DNA of 44,729 bases from Clostridia bacterium (GCA_045592225.1 JAZNUH010000041.1:1-44729), one strand, 5' to 3'. Positions 3,789-13,098 are shown, counted from the first letter of the stretch. Notes: generated by a model from the letters alone, not told the origin. Program-made: numbers and translations.

Positions 3789-4751
3789 ATGAAAAAACTT
3801 ATTTCCATTGCTCTTGCTATGGTAATGCTGCTTGCAGTTGCAGGTTGCGGTAACACAGCAGGAACAACAACAATGACAATGGGTACAGGCGGTACCGCAG
3901 GTACATACTACGGTTACGGCGGAGTACTGGGTCAGTACATTAAAAACAATGCAGGAATCAACGTAACAGTTGTTTCTACAGACGGTTCAAAGGCTAACAT
4001 CCAGGGTATCGACGCAGGCGACTACCAGCTTGGTACAGTTCAGTCCGACGTTATGGACTATGCAGTAAAGGGAACACGTTCCTTTGAAGAAGACGGTGCG
4101 GTTACAACATTCCGTACAGTTGCAGGTCTTTATGCAGAAGCAGTTCAGCTTGTAACAATGGATCCCGCTATAAAGAGCGTTGCTGACCTTAAGGGTAAGA
4201 GCGTTTCCATCGGTGCTCCCGGCTCGGGCGTATTCTTCAATGCTATGGACGTTCTCACAGCAGCAGGTCTTACAGAAAATGATATTCAGGCTCAGTACCA
4301 GTCTTTCGCAGACAGCGCTGATGCTCTTAAAGACGGCAAAATAGATGCTGCATTTATCGTTGCAGGACCTCCCACACCCGCTATCACAGAACTGTGCACA
4401 ACAAATGATGCATACCTGGTTCCCATCGATGGCGCAATAGCAGAAAAGCTTATGGCTGACTGCCCCTTCTACACAGTACACACAATTCCTGCAGGCACAT
4501 ATCCCGGCCAGGAAGCTGATGTAAACACAGTTACAGTTAAGGCTACACTTATCGTAAGCGCAGACGCTTCTGAAGAAGATGTTTATAAGCTTACAGCAGC
4601 TATCTTTGATAACATCGAAGCCATTTCTGCAGAAAACGCAAAGGGTAATGAGCTGAGCATTGAAAACGCAACAAGCGGTCTCACAGTTCCCTTCCACGCA
4701 GGTGCTGCAAAATACTTTGCTGAAAAAGGCGTAGAGGTTGCAGTTGACTAA
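3789..4751 (+). CDS. TRAP transporter solute-binding subunit, TAXI family (lipoprotein)
   Basis: Lipobox LLAVAGC, then GTGGTAGTYYGYGGVLGQY and STDGSKANIQGIDAGDYQLGTVQSD, which are typical TAXI motifs. A fused TRAP permease gene follows. Confidence 0.85.
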   Translation: MKKLISIALAMVMLLAVAGCGNTAGTTTMTMGTGGTAGTYYGYGGVLGQYIKNNAGINVTVVSTDGSKANIQGIDAGDYQLGTVQSDVMDYAVKGTRSFEEDGAVTTFRTVAGLYAEAVQLVTMDPAIKSVADLKGKSVSIGAPGSGVFFNAMDVLTAAGLTENDIQAQYQSFADSADALKDGKIDAAFIVAGPPTPAITELCTTNDAYLVPIDGAIAEKLMADCPFYTVHTIPAGTYPGQEADVNTVTVKATLIVSADASEEDVYKLTAAIFDNIEAISAENAKGNELSIENATSGLTVPFHAGAAKYFAEKGVEVAVD

Positions 4752-4767
4752 TTAATTTACGCATTAT

Positions 4768-4795
4768 AACGGCTGCGGCGAAAGTCGCAGCCGTT
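4768..4795 (+). promoter_or_regulatory. intercistronic hairpin between the binding-protein and permease genes
   Basis: 10-bp stem AACGGCTGCG/CGCAGCCGTT with an 8-nt loop and only a weak T tract. Such hairpins commonly set the excess of binding protein over permease. Confidence 0.45.
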
Positions 4796-4815
4796 TCAGT
4801 ATATAAGGAGGCAAT

Positions 4816-6798
4816 ATGTTACTTTTTGGAAAAAAGAAAGCCGCAGAGACAAATGAACCCATGGATCTCGATGCGGTAATGAAAAAATTTGACCGTGAGT
4901 CAAATGTCCGTATATGGGAAGGCGCGCCCAAAATTGTGGTGAATTGCCTGCTTGCGGCATTTGCAATTTTTTGCGTGGTAGAAATACTGCTTTTAAAGAG
5001 ACTTGAAGAACATCGTCTTACAACATTTGTAGCATTTATTACCATGCTGGGGTACATTGTTTTCCCTGCAAGAAAAGGTGTGCAGAAGGTTAATTATATG
5101 CCTTGGTACGATGTAGTACTTATGGTTTTGGGAACAGCTGCATTCCTTTATTTTGATTTTAATGCTATGGAAATTATTCAGCAGGGCAGTAAGTTTGAAC
5201 TCTACCAGATAATAATAGGTATTGTTGGTATTATATCTGTTACAGAGGTTTGCCGCAGAAGTGTTGGTCTTCCTATTGTAATTGTTGCGGCATGCTTTGT
5301 AATTTATGCAATGGTGTTCGGACTTCAAAACCCCTCATTTATGAAAAAATTAAATTACCTTGTTCGTAATTTGTTCTATACAAAAGAAGGTATTTTGTCT
5401 ACTCCTATTAATGCTTGTTCAAAGTTTATAGTTATATTTATTATATTCGGCGCTTTTCTGGAAAGAAGCGGTATTGCTGATTTCTTTATTAAAATCTCAA
5501 ATGCCATTGTTGGCGGATTTTCAGGCGGCCCCGCAAAGGTTGCGGTTGTTGCCAGCGCACTTGAAGGTATGGTTTCGGGCTCATCTGTTGCAAATACAGT
5601 TGGTTCAGGCTCTGTTACCATTCCTCTTATGAAGAGAACAGGATATAAACCCGAGTTTGCTGCGGCGGCAGAAGCGTCTGCTTCAACAGGCGGACAGATT
5701 ATGCCTCCCATTATGGGCGCAGCAGCATTCCTTATGGCAGACTTTATCGGTGTTCCTTACAGCAATCTGGTTGTACGTGCTATTCTTCCTGCAGTTTTAT
5801 ACTTTGCAGGTATATTCATTGCGGTACATCTTGAAGCAAAAAAAGAAGGTCTTCGAGGTCTTACTAAAGAAGAACTTCCCAGAATAAAGCCTCTGCTTAA
5901 AGATACATATTTACTTATACCTTTGTTTTTACTTATTTATCTTGTAAGCTCAAGCATATTTTCTATTCAGTTTGCAGCTGCTATATCAATTGGTGCTGTT
6001 ATAATAGTGAGCATAGTAAGCAACCTGATAAACAAAAAAGGTATTACCTTTGTACAGCTTATAAAGACTTTATTTAAAAACATATTCGAATCCTTTGCAG
6101 CAGGCGGTCAGGGCACAATTACTGTTGCAGCAGCTTGCGCAGTTGCAGGTATCATTTCGGGTATTATTACAATGACAGGTCTTGCAAACATTCTGTTTAA
6201 TGGTATTGTTGCTCTTGCAAGCGGTAAGGTTATAATTGCTCTGTTCTTAACAATGATTTGCTGTATCATACTTGGTATGGGTGTTCCTACAACAGCAAAC
6301 TACTGCATTATGGCGGCAACCTGTGCACCTATCCTTATCCGTATGGGTGTTCCCCAGATTGCGGCTCACTTCTTTGTATTCTACTTTGGTATAGTTGCTG
6401 ACTTAACACCCCCTGTTGCTCTTGCTGCATATGCAGGTGCGGCTATTGCACAGGCAAATCCCATGAAGACAGCGGTAACGGCAACAAAGCTTGCAATAGG
6501 TGCATTTATAGTTCCTTACGTATTTGCTTTAAATCCTGCAATGCTGCTTATTGACACAACAGCGATTGATGTTGTTCTTATATGTATAACATCACTTATA
6601 GGTATGTTTGCGGTTTCATCAGCACTTGAAGGATACCTCCTTCACAAAATGAGCTGGTATGAACGCATAGTAAATGTTGTAGGCGGTCTGCTTCTTATAT
6701 ACCCCGGTCTTACAACCGACCTTATCGGTCTTGCGCTGGTGGTAGCAGTTATTGCAATTCAGTTTCTTACCAAAAAGAAATATGCAGCAAGCGTGTAA
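4816..6798 (+). CDS. TRAP transporter fused permease (DctQ/DctM-like, TAXI-associated)
   Basis: 660-aa polytopic membrane protein directly downstream of the TAXI gene. Size and composition are typical of fused TAXI-type permeases. Confidence 0.85.
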   Translation: MLLFGKKKAAETNEPMDLDAVMKKFDRESNVRIWEGAPKIVVNCLLAAFAIFCVVEILLLKRLEEHRLTTFVAFITMLGYIVFPARKGVQKVNYMPWYDVVLMVLGTAAFLYFDFNAMEIIQQGSKFELYQIIIGIVGIISVTEVCRRSVGLPIVIVAACFVIYAMVFGLQNPSFMKKLNYLVRNLFYTKEGILSTPINACSKFIVIFIIFGAFLERSGIADFFIKISNAIVGGFSGGPAKVAVVASALEGMVSGSSVANTVGSGSVTIPLMKRTGYKPEFAAAAEASASTGGQIMPPIMGAAAFLMADFIGVPYSNLVVRAILPAVLYFAGIFIAVHLEAKKEGLRGLTKEELPRIKPLLKDTYLLIPLFLLIYLVSSSIFSIQFAAAISIGAVIIVSIVSNLINKKGITFVQLIKTLFKNIFESFAAGGQGTITVAAACAVAGIISGIITMTGLANILFNGIVALASGKVIIALFLTMICCIILGMGVPTTANYCIMAATCAPILIRMGVPQIAAHFFVFYFGIVADLTPPVALAAYAGAAIAQANPMKTAVTATKLAIGAFIVPYVFALNPAMLLIDTTAIDVVLICITSLIGMFAVSSALEGYLLHKMSWYERIVNVVGGLLLIYPGLTTDLIGLALVVAVIAIQFLTKKKYAASV

Positions 6799-6814
6799 AT
6801 TATTTTAAAAGATA

Positions 6815-6843
6815 TTGACAAAAAAATATGTATGTGTTAGAAT
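6815..6843 (+). promoter_or_regulatory. sigma-A-type promoter of the T-box leader
   Basis: TTGACA, 17-nt spacer, then TAGAAT preceded by TGT (extended -10). Confidence 0.5.
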
Positions 6844-6849
6844 AGGTTA

Positions 6850-7128
6850 AAAGCAATGAACGGAACCAAGTAGGCTATGAGCGGAGAAGAGAGAAACGGC
6901 GGTTGGTGCGAGCCGGGGTCTTAACATAGTTCGAATACAGTCCGGGAGCTGCAGGGGAGAAATAGCAGTAACTCCTGACGGGGGCGCCCGTAGAAACGCG
7001 TGAGTAGTACGGTAGTATGGTTTTTTCGTTTACTCAATGAGGCAAACGACCGTGAGGTGTTTGTGAACTGAGGTGGTAACACGGATTTATTTTCCGTCCT
7101 CTAATAGTTTATTAGAGGACGGTTTTTT
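6850..7128 (+). promoter_or_regulatory. T-box riboswitch leader, probable Tyr (UAC) specifier
   Basis: Stem I shows K-turn halves AUGAA/GGAGC, an AGUA S-turn (6869-6872), an AGAGA bay and a GGUGCGA distal loop (6905-6911). The specifier loop reads CGAAUACAG, with UAC at 6936-6938. The T-box sequence AACUGAGGUGGUAACACGG lies at 7066-7084. The terminator CCGTCCTCTAAT/ATTAGAGGACGG plus T6 lies at 7094-7128. Confidence 0.75.
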
Positions 7129-7167
7129 ATTGCCTGCCGTTCTCGATGAAAATTAGAAAAAGAAAGG

Positions 7168-8712
7168 ATGGTAAAAATGGCAGTAAAAATTTTAATGTTG
7201 GTAGTGTTTTTTGGTATTATGGTAGGTGTCGGTTTCTATTGCAAAAAGCATACAACCGACGTATCGGGCTTTGTTCTCGGCGGTAGAAGCGTAGGTCCCT
7301 GGCTTACAGCCTTTGCTTACGGTACTTCTTATTTTTCAGCGGTAATTTTTGTAGGTTATGCAGGACAGTTTGGTTGGAAGTTTGGTGTAGCATCCACATG
7401 GATTGGTCTTGGTAATGCGTTTATCGGTTCACTTCTTGCATGGATAATTCTGGGCAGAAGAACAAGACTTCAGACACAGCATCTTGAAACTGCAACAATG
7501 CCCGAATACTTTGGCAAACGTTATCTCAGCAGTGCAATAAAGATAGTTGCATCAGCTATTGTATTTATATTCCTTATTCCTTACACAGCATCGTTGTACA
7601 ACGGTCTTTCCAGACTTTTTGAAATGGCTTTCCCCGCTGTTTCTTACGATGTTTGCGTAATTGTTATGGCAGTTCTTACCGGTGTTTATGTAATTGCCGG
7701 CGGATATATGGCAACAGCTATTAATGACTTTATTCAGGGGATTATTATGCTGGGCGGTATTGTGGCAGTAATTGCGGCAGTACTTGGCGGACACGGTGGT
7801 TTTACAGCGGCTATTACCGAGCTTGCAAAAGTTCCTCATGAAATTCCCGGTGCATACGCGTCCTTCTTCGGCCCCGACCCCTTTGGTCTTTTATGTGTTG
7901 TAATTCTCACTTCACTGGGCACATGGGGACTTCCGCAGATGGTACAGAAGTTTTATGCTATAAAGAGTGAAAAGTCAATCAGCAAGGGCACAATTATTTC
8001 TACAATCTTTGCTATTGTTGTAGCAGGCGGTTGTTACTTCCTGGGCGGATTTGCGCAGATTTCGGGTGTTGCTGTTGATGGTGGCACTCCCGTAGGCGGC
8101 TTTGATGCGGTAATTCCCGCAATGCTTGAAAATCTTCCCGATATTCTTATCGGTATTGTCATCGTACTGGTGCTTTCTGCATCAATGTCCACACTTTCAT
8201 CTTTGGTAATGGCATCAAGCTCTACGCTGACCCTGGATATGATAAAGGGACATATTGTAAAAAATATGAGTGAGAAAAAACAGGTTTTCATTATGAGAGT
8301 GTTTATAGTGGTGTTTATTGCAGTTTCTGCATTTATTGCCATTAATAAAGATAAACTTGGTTACATTGCAGATATGATGGGTATTTCCTGGGGCGCACTT
8401 GCCGGTGCATTCCTGGCACCCTTCCTCTACGGTTTATACTGCAAATGGGTTACAAAGGCATCGGTTTGGGTATGCTTTATTTACGGCGCAGGTCTTATGA
8501 TTGCCAATATGCTGTTCAGATCAAGCTTTCCTGCAGCACTGGCATCACCCATTAACTGCGGTGCAGTTGCAATGATTGGCGGACTTATTATTGTTCCCAT
8601 TGTTAGCCTTGTAACCCCCAAACTTAAAAAACAGGTTGTAGATGAAATGTTCACCTGCTATGACGAGCAGGTTACAGTATCTGCCAAGCAGTCACTTGGC
8701 GAAATAAAATAA
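7168..8712 (+). CDS. sodium:solute symporter family (SSF, PutP/PanF-like) transporter
   Basis: About 13-TM product with SSF-like N-terminus GFVLGGRSVGPWLTAFAYGTSYFSA. ATG 7177 has better RBS spacing than 7168, so the start is uncertain by 9 nt. Confidence 0.85.
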   Translation: MVKMAVKILMLVVFFGIMVGVGFYCKKHTTDVSGFVLGGRSVGPWLTAFAYGTSYFSAVIFVGYAGQFGWKFGVASTWIGLGNAFIGSLLAWIILGRRTRLQTQHLETATMPEYFGKRYLSSAIKIVASAIVFIFLIPYTASLYNGLSRLFEMAFPAVSYDVCVIVMAVLTGVYVIAGGYMATAINDFIQGIIMLGGIVAVIAAVLGGHGGFTAAITELAKVPHEIPGAYASFFGPDPFGLLCVVILTSLGTWGLPQMVQKFYAIKSEKSISKGTIISTIFAIVVAGGCYFLGGFAQISGVAVDGGTPVGGFDAVIPAMLENLPDILIGIVIVLVLSASMSTLSSLVMASSSTLTLDMIKGHIVKNMSEKKQVFIMRVFIVVFIAVSAFIAINKDKLGYIADMMGISWGALAGAFLAPFLYGLYCKWVTKASVWVCFIYGAGLMIANMLFRSSFPAALASPINCGAVAMIGGLIIVPIVSLVTPKLKKQVVDEMFTCYDEQVTVSAKQSLGEIK

Positions 8713-8737
8713 AGTGCAAATGAGAGGAAAATGAAAA

Positions 8738-10372
8738 ATGCCTATTACAGATTTTTTGGAAAGAAACGCGAGATTTTATCCTAATGATGTGAGCCTTGTA
8801 GAGGTTAACCCCGAAAATCAGCCGGGTGAAAATGTTTCGTGGCACGAATACAGCCTTATTGAAGCATCAAAAGGCGGACAGTACAGACGTGAGCTTACCT
8901 GGAAGGAGTTTGACATTGCGGCAAACCGATTTGCCAACCTTCTTTTAACACGCGGAGTTAAAAAGGGCGACAAGGTGGCAATTCTTATGATGAACTGCAT
9001 TGACTGGTTACCCATTTATTTTGGTATACTCAAATCAGGTGCGCTTGCTGTTCCTATGAACTTTCGCTTTTCTGCTGAGGAGATAGAATATTGTTCAGAT
9101 CTTGCAGATATATCTGTATTGGTATTTGGTCCCGAATTTACAGGCAGAATTGAAAGTGTTTTACCAAAGCTTCGTATAAAACACTACTTCTTTGTTGGTG
9201 AAAATGCTCCGGACTTTGCTGACGACTACAGTGAGATGATAACATACTGTTCGTCAGTTGCTCCTGCCATAGAAATCAGTGACGAGGACGATGGTGCTAT
9301 CTACTTTTCGTCCGGTACAACCGGATTTCCCAAGGCCATACTTCACAGACACAGGGCACTTGTTGCATCATGTGAGGTTGAGCAGAAGCATCACTCACAA
9401 AGTCGTGATGATGTATTCCTTTGTATTCCTCCTCTCTACCATACAGGTGCAAAAATGCATTGGTTCGGCTCGCTTATCGCAGGCTCCAAGGCGGTTATCC
9501 TTCGCGGCATAAAGCCTGAGTGGATAATGCAGACCGTATCCGATGAAAAGGCAACAATTGTATGGCTGCTTGTTCCGTGGGCACAGGACATTCTTGATGC
9601 TATTGAACGCGGGGACATAAAGCTTTCGGATTACAGACTCTCACAGTGGCGACTTATGCATATAGGTGCACAGCCTGTACCTCCCTCACTTATCAAGAGA
9701 TGGAAAGAAATTTTCCCCAACCATGATTATGACACAAACTACGGTTTGAGTGAATCTATCGGACCTGGTGCGGTGCATCTGGGTGTTGAAAATATCCACA
9801 AGGTTGGAGCTATCGGTATTCCCGGTTACAAATGGGAAGTTAAGATTGTAAACGGTGAAGGCAACGAGGTTGAAAAGGGTGATGTAGGTGAGCTTTGCCT
9901 TAAGGGTGACGGCGTTATGAAGTGCTACTACAAAAACCCCGAGGCAACACGTGAAGTTCTGACACCAGACGGATGGCTTTATACAGGCGATGTTGCAAAG
10001 CAGGACGAGGACGGATTTATTTACCTTGTAGACCGTAAAAAGGATGTTATTATAACAGGCGGTGAAAACCTTTATCCTGTACAGATAGAAGACTTTTTAA
10101 GAGCAAATGAAAAGGTAAACGATGTAGGCGTAATCGGTCTGCCTGATGAAAGACTTGGCGAAATTGCCGCAGCTATTATTCAGCTTAAAGAAGGTGTGAG
10201 CGCAACAGAAGAGGAAATGCACGAATACTGCATGGCTCTGCCCCGCTACAAACGTCCCAAGAAAATTATTCTTGCCGACATTCCAAGAAATGCAACAGGT
10301 AAAATACAGAAAAACGCCCTTCGTGAGCGTTATGGTGCATCAAGACTTGTAGAGGCAGAAACAACAAAATAA
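8738..10372 (+). CDS. AMP-forming acyl-CoA synthetase/ligase (class I adenylate-forming enzyme), substrate unknown
   Basis: Core motifs YFSSGTTGFPKA, YGLSE, YTGD and GKIQK are present. Confidence 0.85.
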   Translation: MPITDFLERNARFYPNDVSLVEVNPENQPGENVSWHEYSLIEASKGGQYRRELTWKEFDIAANRFANLLLTRGVKKGDKVAILMMNCIDWLPIYFGILKSGALAVPMNFRFSAEEIEYCSDLADISVLVFGPEFTGRIESVLPKLRIKHYFFVGENAPDFADDYSEMITYCSSVAPAIEISDEDDGAIYFSSGTTGFPKAILHRHRALVASCEVEQKHHSQSRDDVFLCIPPLYHTGAKMHWFGSLIAGSKAVILRGIKPEWIMQTVSDEKATIVWLLVPWAQDILDAIERGDIKLSDYRLSQWRLMHIGAQPVPPSLIKRWKEIFPNHDYDTNYGLSESIGPGAVHLGVENIHKVGAIGIPGYKWEVKIVNGEGNEVEKGDVGELCLKGDGVMKCYYKNPEATREVLTPDGWLYTGDVAKQDEDGFIYLVDRKKDVIITGGENLYPVQIEDFLRANEKVNDVGVIGLPDERLGEIAAAIIQLKEGVSATEEEMHEYCMALPRYKRPKKIILADIPRNATGKIQKNALRERYGASRLVEAETTK

Positions 10373-10380
10373 ATATAAAT

Positions 10381-10403
10381 GGGCTGTAAAGGTTTTACAG
10401 CCC
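10381..10403 (+). terminator. hairpin after the ligase gene (weak terminator)
   Basis: Perfect 10-bp stem GGGCTGTAAA/TTTACAGCCC, but no T tract follows. Confidence 0.35.
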
Positions 10404-10439
10404 ATAATTAATTCAGCAGTACATAAAAGGGGATTCATC

Positions 10440-11303
10440 ATGAAAAAAGGGATTTTATATGCCGCTATAACGGCGGCGTTATTTGTTACGCTTGAGCCGG
10501 TATGCAAGCTTATTGCAGACAGAGTTAACCCTTATACAATAACCTTCTGGCGATTCTTTTTAGGGGCGTTTATGCTTGTTCCGCCGGCACTTATAAAAAT
10601 GAAGAAAGAAAAAATACGCATTACGGCAAAGGAACTGGGGCTTATGACCGCCCTTGGTATATTGTTTGTATGTGTAAGTATGATACTCATACAGATTGCA
10701 ATAAAGGAGGGGGAGGCACCCTCGCTTATTGCTATAACCTTTTCGTCAAACTCAATTTTTACAATTATGTTTGCGGTATTGCTCATCAAGGATGAAAGGC
10801 TTACAAAAAATAAAATTATTGCCCTTATAGTCGGAGTAATCGGTGTGCTTGCCTGTGCCGATTTCGGAGAAAAAACCAACCTGAGACCTATTATTTTTGC
10901 TGTACTTTCGGCAATTTCGTTCAGTCTGTACACGGTGCTGAGCAGAAAATATATGGGCAGAGTGGGCGGAATTATCCAGTCGGCAGGAGCTTTTCTTTCC
11001 GGCAGTATAATTCTCCTGATTATTTTGCTGATAAGCGGAGAAAGTGTGGCTTTGCCGCTTGTGGGAAATGACCTTATGATTCTTTTGTTTATTGCGCTTG
11101 TAACAGGTGTAGGTTATGCCTGCTACTTTATGGCGATGGACAGGGGCGGTGCTATGATGGCATCTCTTGCTTTTTTTATAAAGCCGGTGCTTACACCCTT
11201 TGTAACATTGGTTATAAACGGAATTGCTCCGGATATTAAGGTGTTCTTCGCAGTAGCGTGTATAGTGGCGGCATCATATTTTGCAGTGTATAGGAAGGCA
11301 TAA
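10440..11303 (+). CDS. EamA/DMT-family transporter
   Basis: 287 aa, about 10 TM helices, arranged as two EamA-like halves. Confidence 0.8.
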   Translation: MKKGILYAAITAALFVTLEPVCKLIADRVNPYTITFWRFFLGAFMLVPPALIKMKKEKIRITAKELGLMTALGILFVCVSMILIQIAIKEGEAPSLIAITFSSNSIFTIMFAVLLIKDERLTKNKIIALIVGVIGVLACADFGEKTNLRPIIFAVLSAISFSLYTVLSRKYMGRVGGIIQSAGAFLSGSIILLIILLISGESVALPLVGNDLMILLFIALVTGVGYACYFMAMDRGGAMMASLAFFIKPVLTPFVTLVINGIAPDIKVFFAVACIVAASYFAVYRKA

Positions 11304-11332
11304 AAAAAGACATTCATATGAATGTCTTTTTC
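11303..11332. terminator. bidirectional terminator between convergent genes
   Basis: AAAAAAAGACATTCATATGAATGTCTTTTTC: a perfect palindromic stem flanked by an A tract and a T tract. Confidence 0.75.
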
Positions 11333-11748
11333 TATGCCTTTTTAATCATTTTTGCTTTGCAAACCTTACAGGTGATTTCAATTTTGCCGACTCCTTTTGG
11401 TACACGAAGCAATGCATGACATTTATTACATTTAAAATAGCGGTGAGTTTTACGTTCCTTCCACATTTTTTTGCGGAAAGAAAAGGTATTAATAAGCTTT
11501 GACTTGACTTTTCGGTATGTGTTAAGCTCGGATGTGCGCGAATAAATGTTTTTGGAAAACATACGCACATAGCAAAGCACCAGCAGAATAAGTGCAAGTA
11601 TATACAAGGGGTAAAATCCAAATACTGCCGAAACAAAAAAGAGTATCAGTGACAGAATGGACATAGCTCTTGAAAGCTCGTCATTCCCGTACCTGCCCTG
11701 CATAAAAACAGCAAGACGGTATTTTAAACTGTAAAAGAATTTTTGCAT
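11332..11748 (-). CDS. membrane protein with C-terminal zinc ribbon (138 aa)
   Basis: Two hydrophobic helices, then CNKC...x17...CKVC. The ATG abuts the TAA stop of the upstream alarmone-synthetase gene (TAAATG). Confidence 0.6.
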   Translation of the reverse strand: MQKFFYSLKYRLAVFMQGRYGNDELSRAMSILSLILFFVSAVFGFYPLYILALILLVLCYVRMFSKNIYSRTSELNTYRKVKSKLINTFSFRKKMWKERKTHRYFKCNKCHALLRVPKGVGKIEITCKVCKAKMIKKA

Positions 11749-12393
11749 TTATTTACCTCCGTCAGCATTGTCAATCTTTTTGCGCAAAGCCTCCATACGC
11801 AGGTCGAGCTGTGCGCTTATCTGTGCGCACTCAAAAAGCTCTGTCGCCATTTCCTTTGTAATTTCAACCTCTTTTTTGTACCTGAGCTGATGCTCGAGCG
11901 ATGCCCAGAAATCCATAGCGATGGTGCGAAGCTGAATTTCCACCTTCATATGCCTTTTTTCGTGGAGAAGGAAAATGGGTATGGAAACTATTATATGCAG
12001 GCTTCTGTATCCGTTGGGCTTTGGATTTTGTATGTAATCCTTTTTTTCAATAAGTGTAATATCATCCTGCGAAAGTAGTGCCTGCGCAAGGGCATATACA
12101 TCGGCAGGGGAGTTACACACAACTCTTATACCGGCAACATCATTTATGTTTTCTTCTATTGCATCCAGTGTAAAGGGCAGATTTTTGCGTAAAAGCTTTT
12201 CCTTTATACTGTCGGGAGATTTAAGCCTGGTTTTTATTGCGCTTATGGGGTTGCGGTCATGCTCTAAAGAATACTCCACATTGAGCACGTTAAACTTGGT
12301 TTCAATCTCCATCATGGCGCATTTGTAGTAGCTCATAAGGTCAACGTATGACTTTGTTATTTCGTATGTGTACTTTTTATCGTCTATATTCAT
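11749..12393 (-). CDS. small alarmone synthetase, RelP/RelQ (YjbM/YwaC) type GTP pyrophosphokinase
   Basis: RelA/SpoT synthetase-domain motifs DVAGIRVVC, NGYRSLHIIV and EIQLRTIAMDFWASLEH. At 214 aa it has no hydrolase or regulatory domains. Confidence 0.85.
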   Translation of the reverse strand: MNIDDKKYTYEITKSYVDLMSYYKCAMMEIETKFNVLNVEYSLEHDRNPISAIKTRLKSPDSIKEKLLRKNLPFTLDAIEENINDVAGIRVVCNSPADVYALAQALLSQDDITLIEKKDYIQNPKPNGYRSLHIIVSIPIFLLHEKRHMKVEIQLRTIAMDFWASLEHQLRYKKEVEITKEMATELFECAQISAQLDLRMEALRKKIDNADGGK

Positions 12394-12408: not shown

Positions 12409-13098
12409 TCAGCAGCATCTGCAAAAGGGACAACAAAACTGTGCAAGACAAAGTCCCATACATATTTTATCAAGACCTGATGAATTCATATTAAATCCAT
12501 GGGCATTTTGCGTATATGTCTGCCCTGAGCGGTATATCTGCTGATAAAGCATTCTGTATGCCCTGTTATCCGGCTCCATTTGTATGGCGCGGGTAATATG
12601 CTCGGTGGCGGTAACTGTATTTCCAAGACCGTGATGGGCAAGGGCAGAAAGATAATACCAACGACCGTTACGGTTTTGTGCAGGTACAGAGTTGAGTATG
12701 CTTGCGGCATCGCTGTATTTACCTGCGTTTATAGCATATATTGCCTGCTTTACCGCGTCACTGTCATTCGGATTAGCCTGTGGACGGTGTGCGCCACCAA
12801 AGCCAAAGCCGAAAAGGTCTTCAAAGTCGACAGTGGTGTAATAATAACCGTTGCCTGCATACCCTCCGTAGCCACCTGTCTGACCGTTGTACTGACCGCT
12901 TTGGCGGGTAGTATATTTTTCAGGGTTCATAAGCATATCGTATGCTTCGTTTACCTCGTTCATTTTTTTTGCTGCCTCGGGGTCATCGGGGTGCAGGTCG
13001 GGATGGTATTTTTTAGCGCATTGTCTGTATGCTTTTTTTATTTCGTCCTTTGTTGCACCTTTCTGTATACCAAGGACTTCATACGGATTGCTTATCAT
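12409..13098 (-). CDS. J-domain protein with Gly/Tyr-rich linker, TPR-like region and Cys-rich C-terminal tail
   Basis: N-terminal J domain NPYEVLGI...YHPDLHPDD (HPD motif). The C-terminus ends in [13 protein letters not shown]. The start overlaps the upstream gene by 4 nt (ATGA). Confidence 0.8.

Follow-up and report, generated by a model that had tools for sequence, protein, structure and literature searches.

T-boxes switch genes on under amino-acid shortage, and we wanted to understand why, in the genome of a Clostridia bacterium, such an element stands in front of a gene for a Na+/solute symporter and a gene for an acyl-CoA ligase. The stretch of DNA that was analyzed (GCA_045592225.1 JAZNUH010000041.1:1-44729; hereafter the window) is 44,729 nt long, the unit studied lies at positions 6815-10372, and the assembly to which it belongs (hereafter this genome, or G000) is a draft of 1.83 Mb in 164 contigs that is 96% complete. 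A reading made from the letters of the window alone (hereafter the sequence-only reading) had proposed that uncharged tRNA-Tyr induces the uptake and CoA activation of an aryl acid such as 4-hydroxyphenylacetate at this locus. Our comparative analysis shows a leader with the features of a Tyr-specific transcriptional T-box in front of the symporter (SSF) and the ligase (LIG), and linkage of both genes to the 2-oxoacid:ferredoxin oxidoreductase IorAB (IOR) under Tyr T-boxes in relatives lends the earlier proposal strong genomic support. We therefore consider it likely, though well short of certain, that the T-box, the symporter, the ligase and IorAB together serve a salvage of arylacetate induced by tyrosine starvation, of which this genome appears to carry a minimal two-gene form.

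The leader is a class I T-box between a promoter and an intrinsic terminator

The full window was searched against Rfam 15 with cmscan, which gave one match above the gathering score, namely the leader of the symporter gene (RF00230; gathering score 93, E 4.6e-22, model positions 1-219 of 219; Table 1). This full-length match lies between a promoter and an intrinsic terminator. The complete T-box architecture described in the sequence-only reading is borne out, and all of the positions given there hold, including those of the loop GAA-UAC-A at 6933-6939. The promoter is the top promoter-like site within 6700-11800, begins 17 nt past the stop codon of an upstream TRAP permease gene and is constitutive-looking. 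For comparison, homologues of the symporter were collected from at least 80 species, and 80 loci (designated here by L numbers) were compared for gene neighbors. A Tyr T-box lies directly 5' of the symporter in 25 loci and 5' of a LIG-SSF pair in one more (L031). An alignment was made of 27 Stem I sequences, that of the window included. The orthologous leaders score 93-119 bits in Rfam, which confirmed all 12 symporter leaders that were checked among 14 loci. The K-turn, S-turn specifier loop, AG bulge and distal loop of the window leader all align to the RF00230 consensus, and RNAalifold on the 27 leaders found compensatory changes in 15 of the 19 pairs of Stem I.

The antiterminator consists of two helices, GAGG 7070-7073 with CCUC 7098-7101 and ACGGA 7081-7085 with UCCGU 7093-7097, separated by the bulge UGGUAAC, in which UGGU occupies 7074-7077. 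The region of the terminator has a folding z-score of -4.2, and its 5' arm (7094-7106) shares bases with the antiterminator's 3' strand (7093-7101), so that the two structures are predicted to be mutually exclusive. Further, a 329-nt contig in a gut metatranscriptome (X23) matches the locus with 4 mismatches and spans 6872-7200, thereby covering the greater part of the leader as well as the terminator and reaching into the symporter gene. This was the only metatranscriptome in which the locus occurred, as assembled contigs, and the contig, a single informative piece without quantitative read-through, is weak evidence for a read-through transcript.

The specifier codon is assigned to tyrosine

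The position of the specifier was calibrated on the Phe, Leu and Ile T-box leaders of this genome, the loops of which read GAA-G-UUC-A (pheST), GAA-CUC-A (Leu) and GACCC-AUC-A (Ile). The offset from GAA varies among them, and the specifier is located from the lower helix instead: a single base, the last unpaired one, separates the triplet from the start of the helix. As determined with RNAalifold, the base that follows UAC-A pairs with alignment column 18 in 25 of the 27 leaders (A-U), the window and L007 having an A.G mismatch there, and the four pairs below this position show compensatory changes. This pairing and the covariation beneath it indicate that the lower helix begins directly after UAC-A. 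The UAC triplet is invariant in all 27 aligned leaders and in four further leaders of LIG operons (L095-L098), making 31 in all; at the next base, 25 of the 27 have A and two have C.

The alternative register, in which the specifier would be ACA (Thr), deserves mention because cmscan nominally selects it for the window: the program leaves GAAUACAG ungapped, with a lowered posterior probability, and so aligns ACA with the columns occupied by UUC in the pheST leader of this genome. Two orthologues have UACC, which could be read as the synonymous Thr codon ACC. The covariance model does, then, put another codon in the specifier columns of the window itself, but it sets UAC-A in these columns for the orthologues L012, L035 and L031, and a Thr codon is likewise at odds with the paired, covarying helix and with the invariance of the first U. 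The discriminator base offers a separate test. The T-box bulge is UGGU in all leaders, and the cognate tRNA therefore needs A73, as the sequence-only reading had noted. We found A73 and the 3' end ACCA in tRNA-Tyr(GUA) from 11 of 11 relatives, and U73 and the 3' end UCCA in tRNA-Thr(UGU) from 9 of 9; both tRNA-Thr genes present in this genome also have U73, and thus tRNA-Thr (UGU, CGU or GGU) mismatches UGGU. The draft assembly contains only 36 tRNA genes, and tRNA-Tyr and tRNA-Thr(UGU) are absent from it; relatives within the family and order carry tRNA-Thr(UGU) beside tRNA-Tyr(GUA) in a Pro-Thr-Tyr cluster. With helix covariation, the alignment of the orthologues and the discriminator base all contradicting it, the Thr register retains next to no probability and is ruled out. 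We conclude that the specifier, as read from the aligned leaders, is Tyr (UAC).

A leader of this kind is reportedly known from Bacillus subtilis tyrS, described by Grundy and Henkin, with the Tyr specifier UAC and a UGGU/A73 pairing. The window leader resembles it in the K-turn of Stem I, the S-turn specifier loop, AG bulge, distal loop, UAC-A, UGGU and the terminator/antiterminator pair. Unlike the tyrS leader, it has an A.G mismatch as the top pair of the lower helix, and it precedes a symporter and a CoA ligase and no aminoacyl-tRNA synthetase.

The T-box precedes a PutP-like symporter and a FadD13/4CL-like ligase

Assignment of the two controlled genes to an SSF symporter and an adenylate-forming CoA ligase, made already in the sequence-only reading, agrees with their Pfam domains (Table 1). 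The symporter probably starts at ATG 7177, because AAAGGA at 7163-7168 is well spaced from 7177 but overlaps the first ATG. Its score for PF00474 is far above the family cut-off of 22.8, but at the equivalog level it falls short of both PutP (189.6 bits versus a cut-off of 515.5) and PanF (136.6 versus 328). The protein is a PutP-like member of the SSS family, for which we propose a role as arylacetate importer. Orthologues 64-83% identical are found in gut and rumen Clostridia, Selenomonadaceae, Treponema and others, at least 80 species altogether, and among anaerobes of gut and rumen both the symporter and the ligase keep 62-86% identity.

The LIG gene starts 25 nt after the stop codon of the symporter gene. 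Its product, which public records name just "acyl--CoA ligase", scores best among NCBIfam models with PRK06187 (402 bits, below the cut-off of 476), and the PaaK model TIGR02155 is not among its 25 best NCBIfam matches. The best matches in PDB are FadD13, FadD5, feruloyl-CoA synthetase and 4-coumarate-CoA ligases (4CL). Homology alone gives no substrate for an enzyme with such relatives; we describe LIG as FadD13/4CL-like and propose that it is a ligase for 4-hydroxyphenylacetate or another arylacetate.

In relatives, Tyr T-boxes precede operons that combine the symporter, LIG and IorAB

To compare gene neighbors, all open reading frames of the symporter loci were clustered, and representatives were scored against NCBIfam. 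LIG adjoins the symporter gene in about 35 of the 80 loci, in both gene orders, and IorA lies no more than 4 kb from the symporter in 14. The recurring neighbors IorA (736 bits on TIGR03336, cut-off 650.9) and IorB (295 bits, cut-off 230) pass their curated cut-offs; the others are a PaaK-type ligase, which at 509 bits stays under the TIGR02155 cut-off, an ACT-domain protein and an Amidohydro_2 protein. As listed in Table 1, the ligase and IorAB stand together under one Tyr T-box in several relatives. Where the symporter is the sole gene behind the T-box, we examined the LIG locus in four genomes (L095-L098), each of which carries, 5' of LIG, another leader whose loop also reads GAAUACA; Rfam confirms this leader in L095, L096 and L098, and in L097 it is a pattern match only, below the gathering score. 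Four genomes have the T-box and symporter and no LIG orthologue. Among the 20 T-box genomes that have LIG, it is next to IorA in 9, and LIG orthologues of 62-70% identity directly precede IorA-IorB in at least nine genomes. Loci without a T-box show the orders SSF-LIG-IorAB, SSF-IorAB-PaaK and SSF-IorAB-LIG, and the symporter is found within IorAB/PaaK/LIG clusters even when no T-box is present (L009, L023, L032, L039 and L062).

The Amidohydro_2 gene (PF04909, about 280 aa) lies between symporter and ligase at L017:5639-6430 and L018:5601-6416 and adjoins the symporter gene in Selenomonadaceae loci, L061, L075, L081 and L084 also carrying it.

Table 1. Features of the unit and of the loci compared with it; positions are those of the window unless another contig is named
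Feature	Position or loci	Strand	Description and basis
Promoter	6815-6843	+	sigma-70-type, TTGACA-17 nt-TAGAAT, TG before the -10 hexamer; 11/12 positions match
T-box leader	6847-7104	+	class I, acting on transcription; RF00230, 104.1 bits
Stem I	6853-6949	+	cmscan alignment, RNAalifold
K-turn of Stem I	UGA 6857-6859 / GA 6946-6947	+	cmscan alignment
Lower helix of Stem I	6861-6864/6941-6944	+	plus A6865.G6940 mismatch; cmscan alignment
S-turn specifier loop in Stem I		+	AGUA / GAA; matches consensus (cmscan)
AG bulge	6890-6894	+	AGAGA; cmscan alignment
Distal loop of Stem I	6901-6911	+	GGUUGGUGCGA; cmscan alignment
Specifier codon	6936-6938	+	UAC (Tyr), then conserved purine A6939; UAC invariant in leaders
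Antiterminator	7070-7101	+	cmscan structure line
Intrinsic terminator	7094-7128	+	13-bp stem 7094-7106/7110-7122, 3-nt loop, T6 7123-7128
SSS-family Na+/solute symporter (SSF)	7168-8712	+	514 aa; PF00474, 189 bits
AMP-forming acyl-CoA ligase (LIG)	8738-10372	+	ANL superfamily, 544 aa; PF00501 + PF13193
Hairpin 3' of LIG	10379-10405	+	12 bp, no T-run on + strand
EamA/DMT transporter	10440-11303	+	PF00892; unit membership doubtful
IorA	G000:C7:3262-4977		TIGR03336, 744 bits versus cut-off 650.9
IorB	G000:C7:4995-5558
Tyr T-box, SSF-LIG-IorA(-IorB)	L011, L012, L016, L025, L033
Tyr T-box, SSF-Amidohydro_2-LIG-IorA	L017, L018
Tyr T-box, SSF-LIG	window, L007; also L010, L014		contig or flank ends there in L010 and L014
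Tyr T-box, LIG-SSF	L031
Tyr T-box, SSF alone	15/26 related T-box loci
Second Tyr T-box, LIG-IorA-IorB-PaaK-ACT	L095
Second Tyr T-box, LIG-PaaK-ACT	L096, L098
Second Tyr T-box, LIG alone	L097		pattern match only

IorAB is encoded elsewhere in this genome

The sequence-only reading had called for a search for a 2-oxoacid:ferredoxin oxidoreductase elsewhere in the genome, and iorAB, the genes that share operons with the unit in relatives, is indeed present on contig C7 (3262-5558). It is not linked to the symporter-ligase unit here. Here iorAB is preceded by a simple promoter and about 60 nt of leader without a T-box, and T-box control of these genes is thus ruled out. A gene for a PF06838 methionine gamma-lyase-family PLP enzyme follows iorAB on this contig (L094:3819-4715), and a gene for an SLH-domain protein precedes it.

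No PaaK orthologue was found in this genome, the only match of the relatives' PaaK-type protein being a 26%-identical fragment. LIG is therefore the only candidate arylacetate ligase, and, with the unit reduced to two genes, this genome offers the cleanest case for studying LIG by itself. Prephenate dehydrogenase (TyrA, PF02153) is encoded in all 24 genomes tested, that is, this one and 23 others. Tyrosine auxotrophy is thus ruled out as the reason for the unit, which would supplement, and not replace, de novo tyrosine synthesis.

A proposed route from arylacetate to tyrosine

In the mechanism that we propose, scarcity of tyrosine would leave tRNA-Tyr(GUA) uncharged, its anticodon would pair with UAC in Stem I and its free 3' end (A73-C-C-A) with UGGU in the bulge, and the antiterminator would be stabilized over the terminator, allowing transcription to run into the symporter and ligase genes. 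The symporter would then import an arylacetate, most likely 4-hydroxyphenylacetate, which is a common gut and rumen fermentation product and a precursor of p-cresol; the AMP-forming ligase would turn it into the CoA thioester; IorAB, with reduced ferredoxin, would reductively carboxylate the thioester to 4-hydroxyphenylpyruvate; and an aminotransferase would convert the latter to tyrosine. We infer the steps of transport, ligation and carboxylation from gene linkage, regulatory logic and enzyme class, and 4-hydroxyphenylacetate is the presumed substrate.

AMP-forming ligases favor thioester synthesis, SSS carriers are typically importers, and induction on tyrosine shortage is the wrong signal for degradation. 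In the characterized catabolism of tyrosine to 4-hydroxyphenylacetate, a 2-oxoacid oxidoreductase works together with either a phosphotransacylase plus a kinase or an ADP-forming ligase, and the pairing of IOR with an AMP-forming arylacetate ligase has been argued to be anabolic (PMC13285125). Because the T-box would induce on shortage, the ligase class favors the thioester and the catabolic route uses other enzymes (PMC13285125), we read the direction as biosynthetic. A unit for aromatic amino-acid fermentation or product export, running from arylpyruvate to arylacetate, could appeal to the fact that IOR is reversible and serves the conversion of phenylalanine to phenylacetate in some gut bacteria (PMC13285125); set against the regulatory signal, ligase class and carrier type, it seems very improbable.

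Two other explanations concern the substrates of the encoded proteins. The symporter might import tyrosine, 4-hydroxyphenylpyruvate or 4-hydroxyphenyllactate, leaving arylacetate activation to the ligase alone, in which case the operon would join direct uptake with salvage. That the top curated model for the symporter is the amino-acid symporter PutP, that the symporter is so often the only gene behind the T-box and that some T-box-symporter genomes are without a LIG orthologue would all suit such a division. The PutP score, however, is far under its cut-off, the symporter gene occurs in IorAB/PaaK/LIG clusters that have no T-box, and the short spacing between the symporter and LIG genes in the window suggests a single functional unit, so that we regard divided functions as unlikely. 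Alternatively, LIG and the symporter might act on an acid outside the IOR route, either one related to tyrosine (4-coumarate, 3-(4-hydroxyphenyl)propionate or 4-hydroxybenzoate, for example) or an unrelated fatty acid. The solved structures nearest to LIG, among them feruloyl-CoA synthetase, 4-coumarate-CoA ligase and FadD13, are in keeping with this, as is the location of LIG away from iorAB in this genome; but orthologues directly precede IorA-IorB in other genomes, an amino-acid precursor is obtained through IOR only from arylacetyl-CoA, and Tyr-specific control would be hard to explain for a fatty acid. We consider an acid of this kind decidedly improbable.

Several observations nonetheless weigh against arylacetate salvage as the function of the unit. 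The substrates of LIG and the symporter are putative, the nearest solved relatives of LIG being fatty-acyl and hydroxycinnamate ligases and the nearest curated model of the symporter being a proline symporter. With the symporter as sole gene after the T-box in 15 of the 26 related loci, a plain tyrosine importer would also be suitable. The presence of prephenate dehydrogenase throughout the genomes tested means that salvage is not essential, and iorAB of this genome is unlinked and has a short leader without a T-box, whereas in relatives it shares a Tyr T-box with the ligase. Many operons encode two ligases, LIG and PaaK, between which the work would be divided, and Tyr specifiers alone occur although IOR takes phenylpyruvate and indolepyruvate as well. 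Finally, the X23 RNA contig could come from DNA carried over in the library.

Relation to known systems

The riboswitch itself is ordinary, and its cargo is the point of interest. The T-box survey of Wels et al. 2008 lists transporters of the ABC, APC, DAACS, LIVCS, MFS, NHAC and NSS families; SSS carriers, CoA ligases and 2-oxoacid oxidoreductases are not among the cargo that it mentions (PMC2494555). As in the operons of that survey, the T-box here would raise the supply of the cognate amino acid through genes of uptake and synthesis; unlike the cargo types described there, the genes encode an SSS carrier with an ANL ligase (PMC2494555). Our full-text literature searches for a T-box with a CoA ligase, IOR or arylacetate returned no relevant report, in line with the remark in the sequence-only reading that it knew of no T-box-linked ligase for this route.

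Rumen bacteria have been known since 1965 to convert phenylacetate to phenylalanine (Allison 1965, cited in PMC7356843), and IOR together with an AMP-forming arylacetate-CoA ligase has been proposed to act anabolically in Bacteroides and methanogens (PMC13285125). The route suggested here follows that proposal from arylacetate through arylacetyl-CoA and arylpyruvate to an aromatic amino acid (PMC13285125), and the IorAB orthologues pass curated cut-offs. The route differs from the proposal in that the ligase is FadD13/4CL-like rather than PaaK-type, the unit includes a dedicated symporter and the Tyr T-box indicates the direction. The pathway from tyrosine to 4-hydroxyphenylacetate of Clostridium scatologenes (HpdDEFG/HpdJ/HpdK) shares the intermediates 4-hydroxyphenylpyruvate, 4-hydroxyphenylacetyl-CoA and 4-hydroxyphenylacetate, but runs in the opposite direction, conserves ATP via a phosphotransacylase and a kinase, has a VOR-like and not an IOR oxidoreductase and is induced by growth on tyrosine (PMC13285125).

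The window contributes the minimal two-gene form in a genome without PaaK, the A.G mismatch that misleads the register of the covariance model and the discriminator test against tRNA-Thr. T-box specificity acts as a functional label, linking two unnamed protein families, widespread in gut and rumen anaerobes, to the supply of tyrosine, and the Tyr T-box constitutes regulatory evidence for the biosynthetic direction of IOR with an AMP-forming ligase. On balance slightly doubtful, though a serious possibility, is the wider claim that the Tyr T-box regulon supplies genes and a direction for the 60-year-old rumen carboxylation of arylacetates. In that event, LIG and the PutP-like SSS carrier would each be a first in their clade, LIG as a dedicated 4-hydroxyphenylacetate-CoA ligase among the FadD13/4CL-like ANL enzymes and the carrier as a Na+/arylacetate importer, and IOR would run reductively in these Oscillospirales on tyrosine shortage. 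By-products such as 4-hydroxyphenylacetate would then be recycled into protein by other members of the community, with effects on cross-feeding models, the nitrogen economy of the rumen and the predicted pools of host-active aromatic metabolites.

Other T-box-controlled ligases and flanking genes

This genome has six T-box matches, which precede pheST, aspS-gatCAB, ridA-leuA-leuCD and three ligase units. Half of its T-boxes (Tyr, Leu and Ile) thus control ANL ligases, and these, being mutually 24-29% identical, are unrelated, which rules out that they are recent paralogues. From the three unrelated ligases we suggest that T-box-controlled activation of acids may be a general route by which amino acids are rebuilt from fermentation acids. 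The Leu T-box (GAA-CUC-A, 117 bits; G000:C69:10570-13339, - strand, L002) precedes a single gene for an 840-aa protein in which a xylose-isomerase-like TIM barrel is fused to an ANL ligase. Orthologues of this fusion occur in at least 80 species, and in 37 of 80 an upstream T-box pattern was seen, with CUC or CUG, synonymous Leu codons, as the specifier. No conserved neighbors of the fusion gene were found, and the idea of a location beside a VOR was rejected. The Ile T-box (AUC, 98.5 bits; G000:C59:21060-23681, + strand, L004) precedes a gene for a 765-aa protein with an XRE helix-turn-helix, a cupin domain and an ANL ligase, which is followed by a nitroreductase-like gene.

Downstream of LIG, a hairpin that lacks a T-run, as the sequence-only reading had it, could terminate transcription weakly or stabilize the 3' end, and transcription past it into the EamA gene is possible. 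That reading had also entertained EamA as a member of the unit, which is not supported: an EamA homologue adjoins the module in none of the 80 loci, the nearest relative L007 included, and for this reason it is excluded from the unit. Just beyond EamA, on the - strand of the window, lie genes for a 214-aa small alarmone synthetase with a RelA/SpoT domain (11749-12393) and a 229-aa DnaJ-TPR protein (12409-13098). Directly upstream of the unit, a TAXI-family TRAP transporter is encoded at 3789-6798 (+ strand), with the solute-binding protein at 3789-4751 and the fused permease at 4816-6798; a homologue of the permease, 77% identical, is also found upstream in L010, about 2 kb from the T-box there and not adjacent to it.

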